DNA of 27,194 bases from NCBI GenBank assembly GCA_964626715.1, contig CAZVGP010000002.1, positions 1 to 27,194 on the forward strand, in the 5' to 3' direction. The number at the start of each line of letters is the position of its first letter. The first letter of the stretch is position 1. The position numbers and the translations under genes were made by a program. Shown here piece by piece: positions 190 through 27,116 of the stretch. The notes below the pieces were generated by a model. That model was given only the letters and a program-made list of their open reading frames with translations, ran no database searches and was not told where the DNA came from. Source of the DNA: an uncultured Candidatus Saccharibacteria bacterium. GTDB lineage: Bacteria; Patescibacteriota; Minisyncoccia; Phycocordibacterales; Phycocordibacteraceae.

Positions 190-1329
190 ATGCGCATCTT
201 AGTGGCAACCGGGCTCTATCCGCCTGATGTGGGCAGTTCTGCGACGTACGCAAAGGCGCTCGAGGGGGGACTCCAGAAGGAAGGGATAGCGGTCTCGGTA
301 CTTCCGTTTTCGCGCGTGCGCCGATTGCCGATACTCATCCGGCACCTGCGGTATTTTTTTCTCGCGCTTCGCGAAGGGAAACACACGGACGTCATCTACG
401 CGCAGGACCCGTTTTCGGTCGGACTTCCCGCGTTTTTCGCGGCGCGCCTCTCGGGAAAGAAGTTTGTGCTCAAAGTGGTGGGCGATTTCGCGTGGGAGCA
501 GGCGGTGGAGCGGTTCGACTTTGCCGGCACGCTCGAGGCGTTCCAGAAGGCGGAGCTTTCGCTTCTGCCGGGCATGATGCGATGGCTCGAGCGCTTCGTC
601 GCCCTGCGGGCAGAGCGCATTGTCGTGCCGTCAAAGTACCTCGGCACCATCGTCGGGCGATGGGGCGTTCCCAAAAAAAAGATCGCAGTCATTTATAACG
701 GGATGGAGGAGCTCGCTGATCCCGGAAACAAGCCGGTTCTGCGCGGCCTTCTCAAATTCCACGGGAAGCTCATCATCTCCGTGGGCCGTCTCGTGCCGTG
801 GAAAGGCTTCGGCGCGCTCATCGGCATGCTTGCCGGCATGAAAAAGGATTTTCCGGACCTGAAGCTCATGATCGTCGGCAACGGACCCGACCTCGCGACC
901 CTTGAGGAAGAAGCGAAGCGGAAAGGAGTCGCGGACGATGTCATTTTCACGGGAGCTCTGCCGCGCGACGTCTTATTGCGGTATATCAGAGCGTCGGACC
1001 TCTTCATTCTCAATAGTAGCTCCGAAGGGTTTTCGAACCAACTTTTCGAAGCCATGGCCATCGGCGTGCCTCTTATCGCAACCAAGGTCGGAGGAAATCC
1101 CGAAGCGATAGCGCATGAAACAGAGGGTTTTCTGGTTTCTCCGAACGACACGGCACGGATCGAAGGATACGTGCGCGCGCTTTTTTCCGACTCTGGCCTC
1201 CGCACGCGGATCATTTCTGGTGCAAAGCGGAAAGTCGCGGAGTTCTCGGAGGAGCGGATGCTTTCTGAAACCGCGAAGCTCCTCAAAAAACTATGCCCGG
1301 TGACTACAACTTCGGATCGCTTCTCATAG
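190..1329 (+). CDS. Glycosyltransferase family 4 (GT-B)
   Basis: N-terminal MRILVATGLYPP, ISVGRLVPWKG, and EGFSNQLFEAMAIGVPLIATKVGG (E-x7-E motif). The last ~11 codons are read from an inserted element. Confidence 0.93.
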   Translation: MRILVATGLYPPDVGSSATYAKALEGGLQKEGIAVSVLPFSRVRRLPILIRHLRYFFLALREGKHTDVIYAQDPFSVGLPAFFAARLSGKKFVLKVVGDFAWEQAVERFDFAGTLEAFQKAELSLLPGMMRWLERFVALRAERIVVPSKYLGTIVGRWGVPKKKIAVIYNGMEELADPGNKPVLRGLLKFHGKLIISVGRLVPWKGFGALIGMLAGMKKDFPDLKLMIVGNGPDLATLEEEAKRKGVADDVIFTGALPRDVLLRYIRASDLFILNSSSEGFSNQLFEAMAIGVPLIATKVGGNPEAIAHETEGFLVSPNDTARIEGYVRALFSDSGLRTRIISGAKRKVAEFSEERMLSETAKLLKKLCPVTTTSDRFS

Positions 1330-1439
1330 GTGTGCGGGCATATATTCTAAACATCGTAACTAACCAAGAACATGAAACAATCTAGGGGAAAAGTGAGTGA
1401 AGCCTTCACACATAATCCGAAGTTGTAGTACCGGGTATG
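1292..1439. mobile_element. E1: inverted-repeat-bounded, MITE-like insert with TATG direct repeats
   Basis: Left IR cccggtgactacaacttcggat (1296-1317) and right IR atccgaagttgtagtaccggg (1415-1435) are perfect except for one extra base. TATG at 1292-1295 and 1436-1439. Confidence 0.75.
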
Positions 1440-1548
1440 CACCCCGTTAGATATCAAGAAATATATTCCTGCTGTTGTATAGAAACATATGAATGAGTCG
1501 CACAGAATATCGAATGCAAGCTCTCACGTCCTATCTAACGGGGTGAAC
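1437..1548. mobile_element. E2: inverted-repeat-bounded, MITE-like insert (CCCGTTAG...CTAACGGG subfamily)
   Basis: Perfect 14-bp IR caccccgttagata (1440-1453) / tatctaacggggtg (1532-1545). Flanks ATGCAC / GTGAAC; AT-rich interior. Confidence 0.75.
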
Positions 1549-2610
1549 GCCATCATGCTTTCCACAGACCGGACGATCCTTGATGCGGACTCTCCCGCGC
1601 GGGCGAGGATGGAGGAGTATGCCGCCGTTCTCGGGAAGCTTTCGATCATCGTGTTTTCGCGCCGCGCGCCGTTCTACGCGCCGACGGTGGGCGTGCCGCT
1701 GTCCATATATCCGACGAATTCTTTTTCGCGCGTTTCGTACCTTCATGATGCGGAACGCATCGGCCGCACGATAGGAGGCGCGGATGTCGTTACCGCGCAA
1801 GATCCGTTTGAAACGGGGCTCGCGGGTCTTCGCATCGCACAAGCGCTCGGCGTCCCGCTCCATGTGCAGGTGCACACGAACTTCCTCGCTCCCGGATTTC
1901 TCGCCGCGCACTGGCCCTTGAACTGGGTCCGCACCATGATCGCCGGTTTCGTTGTCCGTCGCGCCGCGCGCATCCGTACGGTAAGCGAGAAGATCAAGAA
2001 GGCTCTCGAAAAACATTATCCTCGTCTGCACGCTCCGATTTCCGTGCTTCCGATTTTCGTCGATTTGCAAAAATACCGGAATATCGCCAGAACCCGTCAT
2101 CCGAAGTTTAAAACCGCGCTTCTCATTGTGTCGCGGCTCGAGCCGGAAAAAAGAGTGGCGCTCGCGGTTCGCGCCTTGAAGAAGGCGCGCGACGCGGGAT
2201 TCGAGGCAGGACTCACGATCGTCGGCTCCGGAAGCGAAGAGGGAACACTGAAACGCGAAGCAGGACGGCTCGGCATCTCGGCATGGGTCGAATTCGCCGG
2301 ATTTCAGAATAACCTCATTCCGTATTACGCTGTGGCGGACGTCCTCCTCTATCCCGGAGCGCCCTATGAGGGCTTCGGGATGGCGATTATCGAGGCCCTT
2401 GCGGCGGGAGTGCCCGTGCTTGCGGAGGATGTCGGCATCGCGCGACAGGCAGGGGCCGAAATCGCCGAAGGCGATTTCGGCGAGGCCCTGATGAGCCTCC
2501 TTAAAAAAGAGCCTCAAAGAGCGACGTTACTCTATCAACCCTACCAGAGTAAGGAAGAGTATTTGAGAAAGTTCAAGGAGGATCTCACGATTTCAAGCAC
2601 CCATGGATAA
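1543..2610 (+). CDS. Glycosyltransferase family 4
   Basis: VSRLEPEKR and EGFGMAIIEALAAGVPV motifs. Start placed at GTG 1543 (MNAIMLSTDRTIL) immediately after E2; the track start at 1489 lies inside E2. Confidence 0.9.
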   Translation: MNAIMLSTDRTILDADSPARARMEEYAAVLGKLSIIVFSRRAPFYAPTVGVPLSIYPTNSFSRVSYLHDAERIGRTIGGADVVTAQDPFETGLAGLRIAQALGVPLHVQVHTNFLAPGFLAAHWPLNWVRTMIAGFVVRRAARIRTVSEKIKKALEKHYPRLHAPISVLPIFVDLQKYRNIARTRHPKFKTALLIVSRLEPEKRVALAVRALKKARDAGFEAGLTIVGSGSEEGTLKREAGRLGISAWVEFAGFQNNLIPYYAVADVLLYPGAPYEGFGMAIIEALAAGVPVLAEDVGIARQAGAEIAEGDFGEALMSLLKKEPQRATLLYQPYQSKEEYLRKFKEDLTISSTHG

Positions 2611-3571
2611 AAACATCGTCACCATCGGTGGAGGCACCGGCACGTTCGTGGTTTTGTCCGGCTTGAAACAGCTGCCGAATGTTTCTCTCTCTGCCATCGT
2701 CTCGGTTTTGGATGACGGCGGTTCAACGGGGCGCCTGCGGGATGCGTACGGATTTTTGCCGCATGGCGACGCGCGGCAGGCCTTGATCGCGCTTGCGGAC
2801 GAGCGGGCATCACTCACTCGTGCGCTCTTCGCGTACCGCTTCTCAAAAGGCGACGTTGCCGGACACAATTTCGGGAATCTTTTTTTGACGGCTTTGACTG
2901 ACATACTCGGCTCTGACGCAAAAGCGATCGAAGCGGCCTCTGCGGTACTTCGCGTCAAAGGCAGTGTGATTCCCGTTTCAGAAAAGCCGGGAACCTTGGT
3001 TGCGAAGCTTCAAAACGGCGAGACGGTGGTCGGCGAGCACGCCATCGATACGCGCACGCCGGGGCGTTCTCCCATTGTCGCTTTGTCGACTAAAGAGCCA
3101 GCCGAAGTCTGTGCAGACGCGAAGCAGGCGATTGCCCACGCTGACATGATTATTCTCGGACCGGGCGATCTCTATGCCTCTACGCTTGCGAATTTTGCCG
3201 TCAGCGGCCTTGCTGAAGCGGTCAAACATTCCCCTGCGCGCCTCCTCTATATCGTGAATCTGTTCACCAAAGCGGGGGAAACAGACGGATACTCTGCGAG
3301 AAAGCACGTTGCAGAAGTTACGCAGTACGCGGGCAGGAGGCCGGATGTCGTTCTTCTGCATACCGGAGCATTTGTGAAAGACGTGCTTGATCACTACGCG
3401 GAAGAGAAGGAATTCCCCGTGGCTGATGATCTGGGTTCCGACCCTTCGGTTATCCGCAGCGATTTCGCGGATGTGATGGTTGCCGAGAAAGTCGCTGGCG
3501 ATACGATAGCGAGGAGTTTTATCCGTCACGACCCACGAAAAGTCGCTGAAAGCATTGCTGCATTGCTATGA
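2603..3571 (+). CDS. yvcK: YvcK/GlmR (CofD-like, UPF0052) UDP-GlcNAc-binding protein, copy 1
   Basis: IVTIGGGTG, DDGGSTGRLR, GD.RQAL.AL, GHNFGNL, IILGPGDLY, FIRHDP motifs. Confidence 0.92.
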   Translation: MDKNIVTIGGGTGTFVVLSGLKQLPNVSLSAIVSVLDDGGSTGRLRDAYGFLPHGDARQALIALADERASLTRALFAYRFSKGDVAGHNFGNLFLTALTDILGSDAKAIEAASAVLRVKGSVIPVSEKPGTLVAKLQNGETVVGEHAIDTRTPGRSPIVALSTKEPAEVCADAKQAIAHADMIILGPGDLYASTLANFAVSGLAEAVKHSPARLLYIVNLFTKAGETDGYSARKHVAEVTQYAGRRPDVVLLHTGAFVKDVLDHYAEEKEFPVADDLGSDPSVIRSDFADVMVAEKVAGDTIARSFIRHDPRKVAESIAALL

Positions 3572-3660
3572 ATCCCGTTAGAGATTACCACATGGTCGAA
3601 TATTTATGCATCATTACCATGATACGGAAACCTCTGGTTTCCTATCTCTAACGAGATGAA
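3568..3660. mobile_element. E3: inverted-repeat-bounded insert with ATGAA direct repeats at the yvcK1/yvcK2 junction
   Basis: IR atcccgttagagat (3572-3585) / atctctaacgagat (3644-3657), 1 mismatch. ATGAA at 3568-3572 (contains the yvcK1 TGA) and 3656-3660 (yvcK2 start). Confidence 0.75.
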
Positions 3661-4768
3661 GGACAAAACCAGACTCAGTAGCATCCGCCGCGTCTCATTT
3701 CATGTGAGGGATATCTTTCGGCCCTCGAAGGATGCGACGGGCCGTCTGCGCGCGCTTAAAAATGCTGTCATCTCCGGCGGCGACTTTATTGCGAACAAAA
3801 AACATGTGGTCACTGTGGGCGGAGGCACCGGCACGTTCGTGGTCCTCTCCGGTCTCAAAGGGCTTCCGGGCGTCTTACTTTCGGCTATTGTGTCTGTCGC
3901 TGACGATGGGGGTTCGACCGGGCGCTTGCGGGACGCATATGGCTTTCTGCCGACCGGCGATGCGAGGCAGGCCCTCGTTGCTCTTGCGGAAGAAGAGGAA
4001 GAGGAGAATATCCTGCGGGATCTTTTCACGTACCGTTTTCCCAAAGGCGATATCGCGGGGCACAACCTCGGCAATCTTTTCTTGACGGCCTTGCGCGACC
4101 GGCTCGGCTCAGAAGGCGCTGCCATACGCGCCGCTTCCGAAATCCTTCGCGTGCGCGGCTCCGTTGTTCCGGTATCGGAGCATCCCGCAACGTTGGTAGC
4201 CACGCTTGTAAATGGAGAGACAATCGTTGGCCAGCATGCGTTGAATGCCCGCGGAGCCGGCGGCCCTCCCATTACTTCGCTGAGAATCGCAGAGAACCTT
4301 TCCGCATCAAAGGGTGCAAAAAAAGCCATTGAATCGGCGGATATGATTATCTTAGGTCCCGGAGATTTATATACTTCAACGCTCGCGAATTTCGCCGTCC
4401 CGGGCCTCACTGAGGCGGTCGCTCACAGCAAAGCGGTTCTGGTGTATTTCGTAAATCTCTTTACCAATGCGGCCGAGACGGACGGCTACGGCGCCCAAAA
4501 GCATGTCGCAGAGATCACCCGCTACGCGGGCAGAGCGCCTGATGTCATTTTTCTCCATACCGGCGAATTGCCTGATGAGGTGCGTGCGTACTACGCCGGT
4601 AAGAAGGGCTTTCCTGTTGTGGATGATCTTCAGGGTGATCCAACCGTTATTCGAGGGTCGTTTGCAAATCCCGTCATCATCCCGAAGACTGAAACAGACG
4701 TCATCGACCGCTCCCTCATCCGCCACGATCCGACGAAAGTTGCGGAGGCGATTCGGAAGCTCCTATGA
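3656..4768 (+). CDS. yvcK: YvcK/GlmR family protein, copy 2, with a ~45-aa N-terminal extension (start uncertain)
   Basis: Same motifs as copy 1 (VVTVGGGTG, DDGGSTGRLRDAYGFLP, GHNLGNL, LGPGDLY, LIRHDP). Confidence 0.9.
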   Translation: MKDKTRLSSIRRVSFHVRDIFRPSKDATGRLRALKNAVISGGDFIANKKHVVTVGGGTGTFVVLSGLKGLPGVLLSAIVSVADDGGSTGRLRDAYGFLPTGDARQALVALAEEEEEENILRDLFTYRFPKGDIAGHNLGNLFLTALRDRLGSEGAAIRAASEILRVRGSVVPVSEHPATLVATLVNGETIVGQHALNARGAGGPPITSLRIAENLSASKGAKKAIESADMIILGPGDLYTSTLANFAVPGLTEAVAHSKAVLVYFVNLFTNAAETDGYGAQKHVAEITRYAGRAPDVIFLHTGELPDEVRAYYAGKKGFPVVDDLQGDPTVIRGSFANPVIIPKTETDVIDRSLIRHDPTKVAEAIRKLL

Positions 4769-4906
4769 CCCCGTTGTGAAGTTTGGCAATACAATAAGAA
4801 ACATGCAAAATATTTTATCAGATACAGAAAGGTTCAGAAGGTTTTTCGATGTTTCAGGTTGTGCTCGCGAGGCGAGCGTTGCCAAACTCTACAACGGGGT
4901 ATGACC
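4764..4906. mobile_element. E4: inverted-repeat-bounded insert with 7-bp TATGACC direct repeats
   Basis: IR accccgttgtgaagtttggcaa (4768-4789) / ttgccaaactctacaacggggt (4879-4900), 20/22 match. TATGACC at 4764-4770 and 4900-4906. Confidence 0.82.
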
Positions 4907-5422
4907 TATTTTCTGGATTTTGATCGGACGCTGTTTGATACCTCGGCCTTTCTCGCGTATATCGTAGAACGCGATGGATTGGATGAACTTCGATCGAAAA
5001 CCGAGGTCGAGATGGCGGCACGTCTCAATGGTCCCGTGGCGGAAGGCGCAATCCGTTTTGAGAAGGACGAACTCGCGCAGTTCCTTTTTCCTGATGCCGC
5101 GGTGTTTCTCAAGGCACACGGGAAGGAATCGGTTATCGTAACGGCGGGGAATCCTGCGCTTCAAAGAGCAAAATGCGAGAATGTCTTTGCGTCCTATCCG
5201 ATCTTCGCTATCATCTACGCGGATGATGAACGGAAGGGACCGGTGCTCGCGAAAGTGGCCGGTTCGTTCCCGAAACCTTGGATTTTTATCGACGACAAGC
5301 CCGCCGAGCTTGAGTCAGTGGTTGTCCTGCTACCTGAAATGTCCGTCTATCAATCCGGTCGCGGCACTCTTCCTGTGTTGGGAGCGTACCCGGTCATCCA
5401 TTCGCTTGCCGAGCTCCCATGA
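4901..5422 (+). CDS. HAD superfamily hydrolase
   Basis: MTYFLDFDRTLFDT (DxDxT motif I), IVTAG (motif II), FIDDK (motif IV). Start at ATG 4901 right after E4; the track start at 4859 lies inside E4. Confidence 0.85.
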   Translation: MTYFLDFDRTLFDTSAFLAYIVERDGLDELRSKTEVEMAARLNGPVAEGAIRFEKDELAQFLFPDAAVFLKAHGKESVIVTAGNPALQRAKCENVFASYPIFAIIYADDERKGPVLAKVAGSFPKPWIFIDDKPAELESVVVLLPEMSVYQSGRGTLPVLGAYPVIHSLAELP

Positions 5423-5489
5423 ACCCTGTTAGGTATCAGGAGGTGCTTGTGTACATGAATAACCCACGTCCATTATCTAACGGGATGAA
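5419..5489. mobile_element. E5: short inverted-repeat-bounded insert with ATGAA direct repeats, in frame with the downstream gene
   Basis: cctgttaggta (5425-5435) / tatctaacggg (5474-5484), with two G-T pairs. ATGAA at 5419-5423 and 5485-5489, offset 66 nt. Confidence 0.7.
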
Positions 5490-6516
5490 GCTTCTCATCG
5501 TGACGCAGGCAGTCGATCGGGAAGATCCGATCCTCGGGTTTTTTCATCGCTGGATCGAGGAATTCACGAAGCACTGGGATCGCATTGAAGTCATCTGTCT
5601 TCGAGAGGGGGGACACGCGCTTCCGGGAAACGTGCGCATACATTCTTTAGGCAAAGAGCGCCCATCTGCGCATGCAAACGGCGCGCTCCGCCGCCTCGTA
5701 TACGCATGGTGCCTTCTCAAGCTCGCGTGGCAGCTTCGCCGCGGCTACGACGTTGTCTTCGTGCATATGAGTCAGGAGTATGTCCTTGTTGCCGGATGGT
5801 TTTGGAAACTCTTGGGAAAGAAGGTGTATCTGTGGCGGAATCACTACGCAGGTTCCCTAGTGACCGACGCGGCTGCGCTTTTCTGCCAAAAGATTTTTTA
5901 TACCTCCGTGCATTCGTACACTGCAAAATATGCTGACGCAGTGCGCATGCCGGTCGGGGTCGATACAGTGAGGTTCTGTCCGGACACCCGCGCCAGACGC
6001 GTGCCGCGCTCGATCCTCTTTCTTTCACGCATGGCGCCCTCGAAACGCGCCGGCATGCTCATCGAAGCGCTCGCGATGCTCGCGCGCCGCGGCGTCGATT
6101 TTTCCGCTTCTTTCGTGGGCTCTCCTCTTTCTCAAGACGATGCATATTACGAATCGCTGAAGCAGCGCGCAAAGATCGCAGGCATCGCCGAACGCGTTTC
6201 CTTCTTGCCGGCCGTACCAAACGTCAAGGCTCCGGCGCTCTATCGCACCCATGAGATATTCGTGAACTGCTCTCCCTCCGGGATGCTCGACAAGACCATT
6301 CTTGAGGCGGCGTCCTGCGGGTGCATAGTACTTGCCTCGAGCGCGGATTTTGCCCTAGTAGCCGGCCCGGAGTATCATTTTGCAACGGCAGAAGAGCTTG
6401 CCGGAAAGATAGCAGCGAATCTCGGGCATACTCCGGCCGAAACGCTTTCCCTGCTTGTACCGGCGCATGCGCTTCCGGCGCTGGCTGCTCGCCTCGCTCA
6501 AGAGATGCGATCATGA
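5485..6516 (+). CDS. Glycosyltransferase family 4
   Basis: MKLLIVTQAVD start, LFLSRMAPSKR, GMLDKTILEAASCG. Could alternatively start at 5419 with an element-derived 22-aa extension. Confidence 0.88.
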   Translation: MKLLIVTQAVDREDPILGFFHRWIEEFTKHWDRIEVICLREGGHALPGNVRIHSLGKERPSAHANGALRRLVYAWCLLKLAWQLRRGYDVVFVHMSQEYVLVAGWFWKLLGKKVYLWRNHYAGSLVTDAAALFCQKIFYTSVHSYTAKYADAVRMPVGVDTVRFCPDTRARRVPRSILFLSRMAPSKRAGMLIEALAMLARRGVDFSASFVGSPLSQDDAYYESLKQRAKIAGIAERVSFLPAVPNVKAPALYRTHEIFVNCSPSGMLDKTILEAASCGCIVLASSADFALVAGPEYHFATAEELAGKIAANLGHTPAETLSLLVPAHALPALAARLAQEMRS

Positions 6517-24195: not shown

Positions 24196-24301
24196 GTATA
24201 CCTCATGAGAGGAGTTCGAGAGGGATAGGCGTATGCAAATTCCATACCCGGTGCCCGCCGTACGTCTGCTCCTCTTCCGGTTTTTTCTCTCACGGGGTAT
24301 A
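24196..24301. mobile_element. D: inverted-repeat-bounded insert with GTATA direct repeats in the wzx/ligase divergent intergenic region
   Basis: IR atacctcatgagag (24198-24211) / ctctcacggggtat (24287-24300), 12/14 match. GTATA at 24196-24200 and 24297-24301. Confidence 0.6.
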
Positions 24302-27010: not shown

Positions 27011-27116
27011 GTACACCCCATGAGATAGAGCTTTATTCCCGGAGTTTTCCCTCACTGTGCCTTTAAGGTTTTTCTGCGAATAAAGAATATTGTAGGTTTC
27101 TATCTCACGGGGTACA
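27011..27116. mobile_element. C: inverted-repeat-bounded insert with GTACA direct repeats
   Basis: accccatgagataga (27015-27029) / tctatctcacggggt (27099-27113), 14/15 match. GTACA at 27011-27015 and 27112-27116. Confidence 0.7.

Follow-up and report, generated by a model that had tools for sequence, protein, structure and literature searches.

Three inserts at gene starts in the window (the whole stretch of 27,194 nt analysed here), designated E2, E3 and E5, are short non-autonomous copies, whose repeat ends lie 60-100 bp apart, of a family of inverted-repeat mobile elements. The recurring peptide start M-(N/H)-P-V-R, which a first-pass annotation had taken as a sign of possible constraint on a peptide, is what results when the original start codon, the bases duplicated with it and the left repeat CCCGTTAGA are read as codons, and in full-length relatives these same codons form the N-terminus of a 94-aa GIY-YIG nuclease. 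The conserved micro-peptide, as originally stated, is wrong. Overall, we consider it probable that the inserts are remnants of mobile elements on start codons that derive from a nuclease gene, that their peptides are not under selection, and that an open frame, which we infer to act as a relay, leads from the duplicated start codon to the host gene.

Short inverted-repeat elements at start codons

The elements have the ends (T/C)CCCGTTAGA...TCTAACGGG(A/G). They insert at gene start codons and duplicate TG together with one to three further bases, and the right-hand start codon is completed by the element's own last base. An element that ends in G leaves GTG as the right-hand start (e.g. locus L084), and in the window the last base of E2, a G, is the first base of the host's GTG start codon. 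The coordinates of the elements, frames and host genes are collected in Table 1.

Table 1. Elements, reading frames and host genes in the window.
Feature	Position	Strand	Details
E1, second element family	1293..1436	+	ends CCCGG...CCGGG; stacked before E2
E2, left target duplication	1437..1441	+	ATGCA, degenerate ATGAA; its ATG starts the 'micro-peptide' frame
E2, frame from duplicated ATG	1437..1496	+	19 codons, then TGA; right repeat not reached
E2, non-autonomous inverted-repeat element	1440..1545	+	arms 1440-1453 and 1532-1545; 14 nt, 100% complementary
E2, internal ATG frame	1489..1542	+	in the frame of the GT4 gene that starts at GTG 1543; 18-codon extension
E2, right target duplication	1543-1547		GTGAA; one mismatch in left copy
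GT4 glycosyltransferase, host gene 3' of E2	1543..2610	+	PF00534, PF13439
E3, frame from duplicated ATG	3568..3651	+	27 codons; TAA 3649-3651 within right repeat
E3, element	3572..3657	+	arms 3572-3585 and 3644-3657; local hairpin ahead of right arm
E4, third element family	4765..4903	+	duplicated-ATG frame stops after 4 codons, inside left repeat
E5, with left duplicated ATG	5419..5484	+	arms about 5424-5435 and 5473-5484
GT4-like glycosyltransferase, host gene 3' of E5	5485..6516	+	

A start codon adjoins 84 of the 99 unique copies that were collected, compared to 0-1 matches for a control pattern, and M-x-P-V-R stands at the head of most of the 125 oriented elements, which come from 16 genomes. 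Terminal inverted repeats are present in E2, E3 and E5, with arms of 12-14 nt. Across 84 copies, the arms are complementary at 1059 of 1092 positions (97%), and 83 of the 84 have complementary terminal bases. The arms of E2 close its predicted fold, and the fold of E5 includes two G-U pairs in the left arm. Counts of G-U pairs in the arms do not separate an RNA stem from a DNA stem.

The target-site duplications vary with the site and are found on both sides (ATGAA, ATGGA, ATGAG, ATGCG, ATGTA, GTGAA). Copy number is about 18 in the source genome and 0-23 in its relatives. An empty site is provided by the nearest GT4 homologue (genome G010), which has a bare ATGAAG junction with no insert, at a locus that is not strictly orthologous. 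We thus see four features of a miniature inverted-repeat element (MITE), namely inverted repeats, site-variable duplication, dispersed copies with an empty site, and a longer coding relative. The left ATG of E3 overlaps the TGA of an upstream CofD/YvcK gene, and that of E5 (5419-5421) overlaps the TGA of a HAD-like gene. The E3 reading given in the first-pass annotation, MNPVRDYH, is correct, but its ATG had been placed at 3569 and lies at 3568. The ATG frame of E1, from the second family, reads MPGDYNF... and stops after 30 codons. No Rfam family matched within the window, and a promoter scan of E2 and E5 found nothing. An integron attC site was also considered, on account of the GTTAGAT/ATCTAAC cores, and was rejected, as these stand in reversed order.

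Full-length relatives carry a GIY-YIG nuclease gene

Full-length relatives of 275-278 bp, with the same ends, are present in genomes G011, G019, G037 and G038, and carry the gene for the 94-aa nuclease (Pfam GIY-YIG match, E=1e-16). Translation of the nuclease would begin at the host ATG in its duplicated copy, and the frame closes with a TGA that overlaps the host gene's ATG, so the element's own gene borrows the start codon of its host. These nuclease genes are under coding constraint (150/126/267 by codon position; pN/pS 0.22-0.44). The right end of E3 corresponds to the final codons of this gene in the full-length relatives. The unpaired or distant repeat ends of the source draft genome yielded no full-length copy bounded by CCCGTTAGA ends; this genome does hold a full-length relative of the E1 type, with a GIY-YIG gene, at C117:530-827.

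As an alternative, the first-pass annotation had proposed that the inserts are what is left of a small cargo gene after decay. For the ends this is supported, since the GIY-YIG gene of the full-length relatives begins M-N-P-V-R-D, but it does not extend to the interiors of E2 and E5, where no homology to the nuclease gene was detectable (z=0.5 and -1.3), the similarity of both inserts to the nuclease element being limited to their ends.

No selection on the amino-acid sequence of the short copies

The codon-level readings of E2 and E5 on which the micro-peptide was based are accurate. Translation from ATG 1437 gives MHPVRYQEI and translation from ATG 5419 gives MNPVRYQEV, and the first eight codons differ at five sites, of which four are silent third-position changes. 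Four of five at one codon position corresponds to P=0.045, uncorrected for the choice of frame, pair and window, and the pattern is confined to the first 23 aligned bases. Past this point, the pairwise alignment of E2 and E5 contains gaps of 8, 8, 26 and 2 nt, and codon phase is kept in just 32 of the 70 aligned columns. Over the whole alignment, substitutions are distributed 4/4/5 by codon position, and the silent-change pattern is no more than chance would give. In addition, the E2 frame stops after 19 codons (TGA 1494-1496) and the E5 frame continues into the GT4 gene, so the two 'peptides' are not collinear. An internal ATGAAT is indeed common to E2 (1489) and E5 (5455), and in both inserts CACGTCC precedes the right repeat and ...LSNG is in frame with the downstream GT4 gene. 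Alignment shows that the right-end motif (G/T)CC-TA-N-TCTAACGGG recurs across the element family, and as CACGTCC and LSNG match this motif they are not peculiar to E2 and E5.

Variable sites in five subfamilies of short copies are distributed 41/49/52 by codon position, which is the even spread that the first-pass annotation itself had named as evidence against its reading. The codon-position test was run on these other subfamilies, without copies of the E2/E5 type; in 300 genomes of the order no further such copy was found, bar one loosely similar left end. As the copies were collected by their repeat pattern, the invariance of the repeat codons was dropped as an argument. The peptides of different copies are unrelated past the repeat-encoded ends, and variation from residue 6 onward falls at first and second codon positions. 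Neither residue conservation beyond the repeat nor an excess of third-position or synonymous changes was found. In short, there is no selection for amino-acid sequence in the short copies.

That E2 and E5 encode a conserved micro-peptide (MNPVRYQE...) under purifying selection on its amino-acid sequence is therefore extremely improbable. The silent changes in the first eight codons and the recurrence of M-x-P-V-R in many copies speak for it, but what recurs is one arm of the inverted repeat, complementary to the opposite arm, and beyond this part the codon-position counts, the frame-breaking gaps, the stop at codon 20 of E2 but not of E5, and the lack of further copies among the 300 genomes all speak against it. 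The observations behind the micro-peptide were confirmed in part, and the interpretation in the first-pass annotation, with its two alternatives taken together, is partly supported.

An open frame, a proposed relay, from the duplicated ATG towards the host gene in many short copies

In termination-reinitiation coupling and leaderless initiation, the stop and the following start are no more than a few nucleotides apart and the upstream sequence is unimportant. There is no Shine-Dalgarno peak genome-wide in the source genome, whereas a -10-like hexamer is most frequent 6-9 nt upstream of start codons, and a Shine-Dalgarno-like motif lies upstream of only 8 of 69 left ATGs. The host start, with the right repeat adjoining its ATG, has no ribosome-binding signal of its own. 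Initiation in this genome seemingly takes place on leaderless mRNAs or at stop/start overlaps, so that the original ATG, on the left, would remain the place of initiation and ribosomes would go on into the insert.

The short copies of at least 90 nt (n=119, combined sets) fall into length classes 0, 1 and 2 as 24/63/32, where class 1 is the length that puts the TAA of the right repeat in frame with the duplicated ATG. Within class 1, the ATG frame is open in 42 of 63 copies, compared to a mean of 7.8 in the other frames (combined sets). For the first set, the frame was open in 36 of 84 copies against 13-21 for other frames, and in 31 of 69 against 9.7 in shuffles, and in an unseen replication set 17 of 22 class-1 copies were open against 1-7 for other frames. 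Indels within subfamilies are of 0 or 3 nt. The signal is strong in the source genus and in G037, and weak in G033 and G027. The copies are interrelated, and cluster weighting (average linkage; single linkage merged nearly all copies) leaves an excess of about 14/36 versus 5-10 for other frames. In classes 0 and 2 the frame is open no more often than the background, so that host genes evidently cope without a relay frame, and an open relay frame is present in only about one third of all copies.

In the commonest length class, where the frame would stay free of stops up to the TAA of the right repeat, which lies 4 nt ahead of the host ATG, a ribosome could terminate at the TAA and then restart on the host gene, and the upstream frame would act as a relay of indifferent sequence. 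Under this proposal, E3 would represent the relay design, E5 an in-frame fusion, and E2 a relay lost by a premature stop. We see that in E3, as in the 42 open class-1 copies, the open frame ends only a few nucleotides short of the host start: E3 is of the 'class 1 open' type, with its TAA 4 nt ahead of the host ATG at 3656. E3 likely has a sequence-independent relay frame. A relay frame is not shown for E2 or E5, as E2 stops prematurely and E5 is a fusion instead. Moreover, at the length of E5 an open frame means little. The suggestion in the first-pass annotation that the inserts are translated from the duplicated ATG is plausible in that this frame is preferentially open in a large subset of relatives, but the peptide-level constraint that came with it did not hold. 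A multi-step relay, with a stop and a nearby restart as in E2, was considered as a general feature and rejected, with 10 extra cases against about 9 expected in shuffled controls.

The open frames could instead be without any translation function, inherited from a few founder copies that arose by deletion in the nuclease gene and have not yet decayed. Such inheritance would fit the weakening of the excess by cluster weighting, the identity of the left-end frame with the nuclease frame, and the lineages that show no excess (G033, G027). We regard it as unlikely, because the right-end frame of class 1, with its TAA, differs from the nuclease frame with its TGA overlap and is thus no simple vestige, because open copies in many genomes have unrelated interiors, and because the excess was seen again in the unseen set. 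Furthermore, 142 variable columns within subfamilies contain no stop in frame and only 3-nt indels, in groups that were chosen from open copies and are biased to that extent. It is also rather unlikely that the hairpin works alone and the frames are irrelevant, whether by RNA arms that juxtapose the upstream stop or original start with the host start, or as a DNA hairpin recognised by the nuclease. The arms are almost always complementary, covary at positions 9-11 and close folds with z-scores of -2.3 to -6.3, there are compensatory changes in the hairpin ahead of the right arm, and Ssn-type GIY-YIG nucleases cleave ssDNA at hairpin repeats (PMC11893778). Yet a hairpin leaves unexplained the excess of one length class and of one sense-strand open frame, and G-U pairs show no sense-strand bias (14 vs 10), so an RNA-level stem is not specifically supported.

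A reading confined to the two glycosyltransferase genes holds that E5, and E2 via its internal ATG, supply real N-terminal extensions to the GT4 proteins, like in-frame Rickettsia palindromic elements. The 66-nt frame of E5 has no stop and would add 22 codons to the start of the GT4 gene, and the internal frame of E2, which overlaps the stop of the first E2 frame, is likewise open into its GT4 gene; gene callers would pick 5419 and 1489. We find this reading quite improbable. Homologues across the genus, in 23 genomes, align from residue 1 of the 5485..6516 product, which makes ATG 5485 the conserved start, and the junction of the G010 homologue has no such extension. Chance alone would leave a frame of 22 codons open in about 40% of cases, and in-frame (class 0) copies are mostly closed, with 2 of 17 open in the first set and 0 of 7 in the second.

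Returning to the relay frame, we tentatively put forward a fuller scenario, to which we give somewhat less than an even chance: a family of miniature GIY-YIG hairpin elements would occupy the start codons of ultra-small bacteria that lack Shine-Dalgarno signals, the nuclease would be translated from the host start, the ribosome would be returned to the host gene at the stop/start of the right repeat, and short copies, once without the nuclease gene, would be rendered harmless through selection for an open relay frame, whatever its sequence. The gene-less descendants are apparently tolerated when ribosomes keep flowing to the host gene. If true, this would account for the survival of transposons in compact genomes that have hardly any intergenic DNA, and would provide a natural setting in which leaderless and coupled translation could be tested in uncultured bacteria. 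For annotation, gene callers will report these frames as genes or add false N-terminal extensions, as with the ORFs 1489..2610 and 5419..6516.

Comparison with known systems

Bacterial MITEs that have been reviewed include Correia/CREE, ERIC, RUP, Nezha and Chunjie (PMC10969869, PMC3184786). Like them, the present copies are short, non-coding and multi-copy, with terminal inverted repeats, target-site duplications and hairpin folds, and MITEs may also be co-transcribed with their neighbours and occasionally contain chance reading frames or fuse with host genes. In contrast to these MITEs, the present copies are almost exclusively located at start codons, which are restored by the element's last base, and their full-length partner encodes a 94-aa GIY-YIG nuclease and no known transposase. 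Chunjie differs further in its 9-bp repeats and 21-bp terminal inverted repeats. In the literature searched on such elements, no description of a relay reading frame was found.

The nuclease resembles the Ssn family, in which a small stand-alone GIY-YIG protein is encoded by a gene flanked on both sides by a hairpin repeat that occurs many times elsewhere in the genome, as set out by Chenal et al. 2025 (PMC11893778). A single-domain, repeat-flanked GIY-YIG protein of about 90-100 aa is likewise found in our full-length relatives and at C117. The likeness is one of domain, size and flanking repeats, and membership of cd10448 and ssDNA cleavage are putative. The Ssn repeats are hairpins of about 30 bp that cluster around genes and are not described as bounded cassettes with start-codon target duplications, nor, in the parts consulted, is the Ssn gene described as translated from the start codon of a host gene (PMC11893778).

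Rickettsia palindromic elements are also palindromic and mobile, and persist in or beside coding regions by means of an open frame (Ogata et al. 2000, as reviewed in PMC10969869). They differ in that they land within genes and are included in the protein product (PMC10969869). Most frames of the present family end just before the host start and leave the host protein unchanged, and only copies of the E5 type would extend it. Finally, the arrangement is similar to translational coupling at stop/start overlaps and to leaderless initiation, in which a stop lies near the next start and the downstream gene has no Shine-Dalgarno sequence. Compared to classical coupling, the upstream frame here comes from a mobile element, and the start codon is the host gene's own, duplicated.

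Inverted-repeat elements at start codons

The window holds a surface-glycan gene cluster (two GT4 genes, two CofD/YvcK paralogues, a HAD-like gene and a GT4-like gene), and five of the window's gene junctions are exactly occupied by short inserts, E1 to E5. E2, E3 and E5 belong to one inverted-repeat family, and each lies between a duplicated original start codon (left ATG) and the start of the host gene; in E3 and E5 the left ATG overlaps the TGA with which the upstream gene ends. The second CofD/YvcK paralogue (window 3656-3805) has some 46 extra N-terminal residues before its Pfam domain, which begins at residue 51, compared to residue 5 in the first.

Short inserts at gene junctions, with window coordinates
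Insert	Left ATG	Repeat arms	Host start	Repeat family
E1	1293			Other than that of E2/E3/E5; similar CCC...GGG ends
E2	1437	1440-1453 + 1532-1545, perfect	GTG 1543	E2/E3/E5
E3	3568	3572-3585 + 3644-3657	ATG 3656	E2/E3/E5
E4	4765			Other than those of E1 and E2/E3/E5; similar CCC...GGG ends
E5	5419	~5424-5435 + 5473-5484	ATG 5485	E2/E3/E5

Approximately 18 paired copies with ends CCCGTTAGA...TCTAACGGG and largely unrelated interiors were found in G000, the genome holding the window (770 kb, 139 contigs). Using the repeat pattern itself to collect copies, we see the same ends in 15 of the 40 related genomes examined, each with 1-23 copies, compared to 0-1 hits for a reversed control pattern. A start codon adjoins 84 of the 99 unique copies, irrespective of the strand that encodes the gene. 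The flanking bases are duplicated and vary by site (ATGAA, ATGGA, ATGAG, ATGCG, ATGTA, GTGAA), which is the mark of target-site duplication, and the short copies agree with MITEs on every criterion examined. The base 5' of CCCG is complementary to that 3' of CGGG in 83/84 copies, indicating that the right-hand start codon takes its first base from the element; where the element ends in G, the host start becomes GTG, as for E2 and locus L084 (left ATGAAC, right GTGAAC).

In the related genome G027, most copies of the element lie between duplicates of TTGA(C) or TATCA instead of start codons (loci L020, L053, L054, L057, L059, L064 and L067). These flanks resemble -35 and -10 promoter hexamers, suggesting that target preference differs between lineages. 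A central (A/G)GTCGA(A/C) motif, frequently with an ATG in front of it, is common to many copies of ~115 nt (alignment A1; window 3593-3601 in E3), and its occurrence in differing codon phases points to a nucleotide-level signal.

Full-length relatives encode a GIY-YIG protein

Four related genomes (G011, G019, G037 and G038) hold elements of 275-278 bp whose ends are those of E2, E3 and E5, and each element encodes a protein of 94-95 aa with a Pfam GIY-YIG match (E ~1e-16). In all four, the nuclease frame begins at the duplicated host ATG (M-N-P-V-R-D...) and ends in ...L-S-L-T-G, with a TGA that overlaps the ATG of the host gene. Upstream of the GIY motif, three of the four genes have the first ATG as their only in-frame one, suggesting that the nuclease relies on a start codon borrowed from the host. 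Only one coding member of these families was found in G000. This element of 298 bp, which has inverted repeats of the E1 type (C117:530-827; L173:231-528, minus strand), contains a 98-aa GIY-YIG frame that opens with the duplicated host ATG and closes at a TAA of the right repeat, 6 nt 5' of the host ATG. The coding partner of the short copies, a predicted GIY-YIG nuclease, resembles the Ssn systems of GIY-YIG and hairpin repeats (PMC11893778).

The inserts show no constraint on the encoded peptide

The first-pass annotation had seen an MNPVRYQE-type micro-peptide in E2 and E5, either under peptide-level constraint or left by a decayed cargo gene. The M-x-P-V-R start is accounted for by the original start codon, two duplicated bases, a T and the repeat read as CCC GTT AGA. 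A coding origin of the frame is borne out by the GIY-YIG relatives, but E2, E3 and E5 share only their first 14-19 nt and last 12-23 nt with the full-length forms, and no interior homology to these is detectable in E2 or E5.

As to constraint, the first eight codons do read as claimed, with five base differences, four of them silent third-position changes. This excess gives P=0.045 for the pre-chosen frame, but loses significance when correction is made for having chosen frame, pair and window. Full alignment of E2 and E5 requires gaps of 8, 8, 26 and 2 nt, leaves only 32 of 70 aligned columns in common codon phase, and places 4/4/5 substitutions at the three codon positions. The E2 frame stops after 19 codons, and that of E5 continues into the GT4 gene. 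CACGTCC and LSNG are indeed common to both inserts, but match a right-end motif that recurs in many family copies. As 300 genomes of the order yielded no further E2/E5-type copies, substitutions were counted in five other subfamilies with alignable interiors, picked among open copies. Variable interior columns numbered 41/49/52 at codon positions 1/2/3, the even spread named beforehand as refuting the claim; the nuclease genes in the same frame, as a positive control, gave 150/126/267 and pN/pS of 0.22-0.44. Variation just past the repeat core is greatest at codon positions 1 and 2, and further on the element peptides bear no relation to each other. Peptide-level constraint is seen in none of E2, E3 and E5.

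The frame across the insert is often open

A first set comprised 69 copies that have a start codon on their left; 31 of these had a stop-free ATG frame, compared to 9.7 in interior shuffles and 7 and 18 in the other sense frames. Copies whose length brings the TAA of the repeat into frame, 4 nt ahead of the host ATG (class 1), numbered 37 in this set, 26 of them open. A six-frame count over 84 copies gave 36 open in the ATG frame versus 13-21 for the others. Due to kinship among copies, nominal P-values are overstated and cluster weighting was applied, which reduced the excess to ~14/36 versus 5-10. The pattern was then assessed in 41 further oriented copies from another five genomes of the genus, which had played no part in framing the idea. 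Class 1 comprised 22 of these, with mutually unrelated interiors, and 17 of the 22 were open, versus 1-7 in other frames. In the combined set, 119 copies measured 90 nt or more and divided 24/63/32 among the length classes; the ATG frame was open in 42 of the 63 class-1 copies against a mean of 7.8, and classes 0 and 2 were open at background rates. Both the genus of G000 (35/45) and G037 show the effect strongly, G033 and G027 weakly. Indels inside subfamilies, again for groups picked among open copies, measure 0 or 3 nt. Two-step relays of the E2 type were not enriched. One antisense frame is also unusually often open in G000 elements (10/15); in copies of class 1, its codons lie directly opposite those of the ATG frame.

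E3 is a complete putative relay design, with 27 codons leading to a TAA (3649-3651), 4 nt and the host ATG. E5 forms a 66-nt in-frame fusion to the GT4-like gene, and is too short for its openness to carry much meaning; GT4 homologues begin at the right-hand ATG (5485), and the junction of the G010 homologue has no insert. For E2, with its premature stop, the internal ATG could act as a restart site, though without statistical support. Two other genomes have an element of unrelated interior directly on the start codon of their homologue of the GT4-like gene 5485-6516 (G024:C1:10474-10578 and G019:C8:4031-4157), reflecting either repeated hits on the same kind of gene or a very old insertion.

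Translation context

Across the whole G000 genome, no positional Shine-Dalgarno peak was found upstream of 841 long reading frames. A TATAAT-like (-10-like) hexamer peaks 6-9 nt upstream of starts (66 cases, versus ~3 per position elsewhere), and xTGA overlaps make up one third of starts. Together, these data suggest that leaderless and coupled translation may be the norm in G000; an SD-like motif occurs at only 8 of 69 left ATGs. Insertion would leave the original start signals with the left ATG and only the repeat before the right ATG, so ribosomes would be expected to enter the insert. For class-1 copies, E3 among them, the predicted course is termination at the TAA of the repeat, followed by a restart on the host gene. 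We infer all of these translational steps from sequence. The available reviews and literature searched yielded no account of the position on start codons, of start-codon borrowing or of the relay frame.

A separate, abundant short-hairpin family (CCCCGTGAGAT...) with GTATAC flanks is also present (window 24286-24296 and 27015-27113; G000 C1:2750-2898 and C24:5897-5967; many contig ends). Nesting or tandem arrangement is frequent among its copies, as is a location at contig ends, and they may be the Ssn-type solo repeats of G000.
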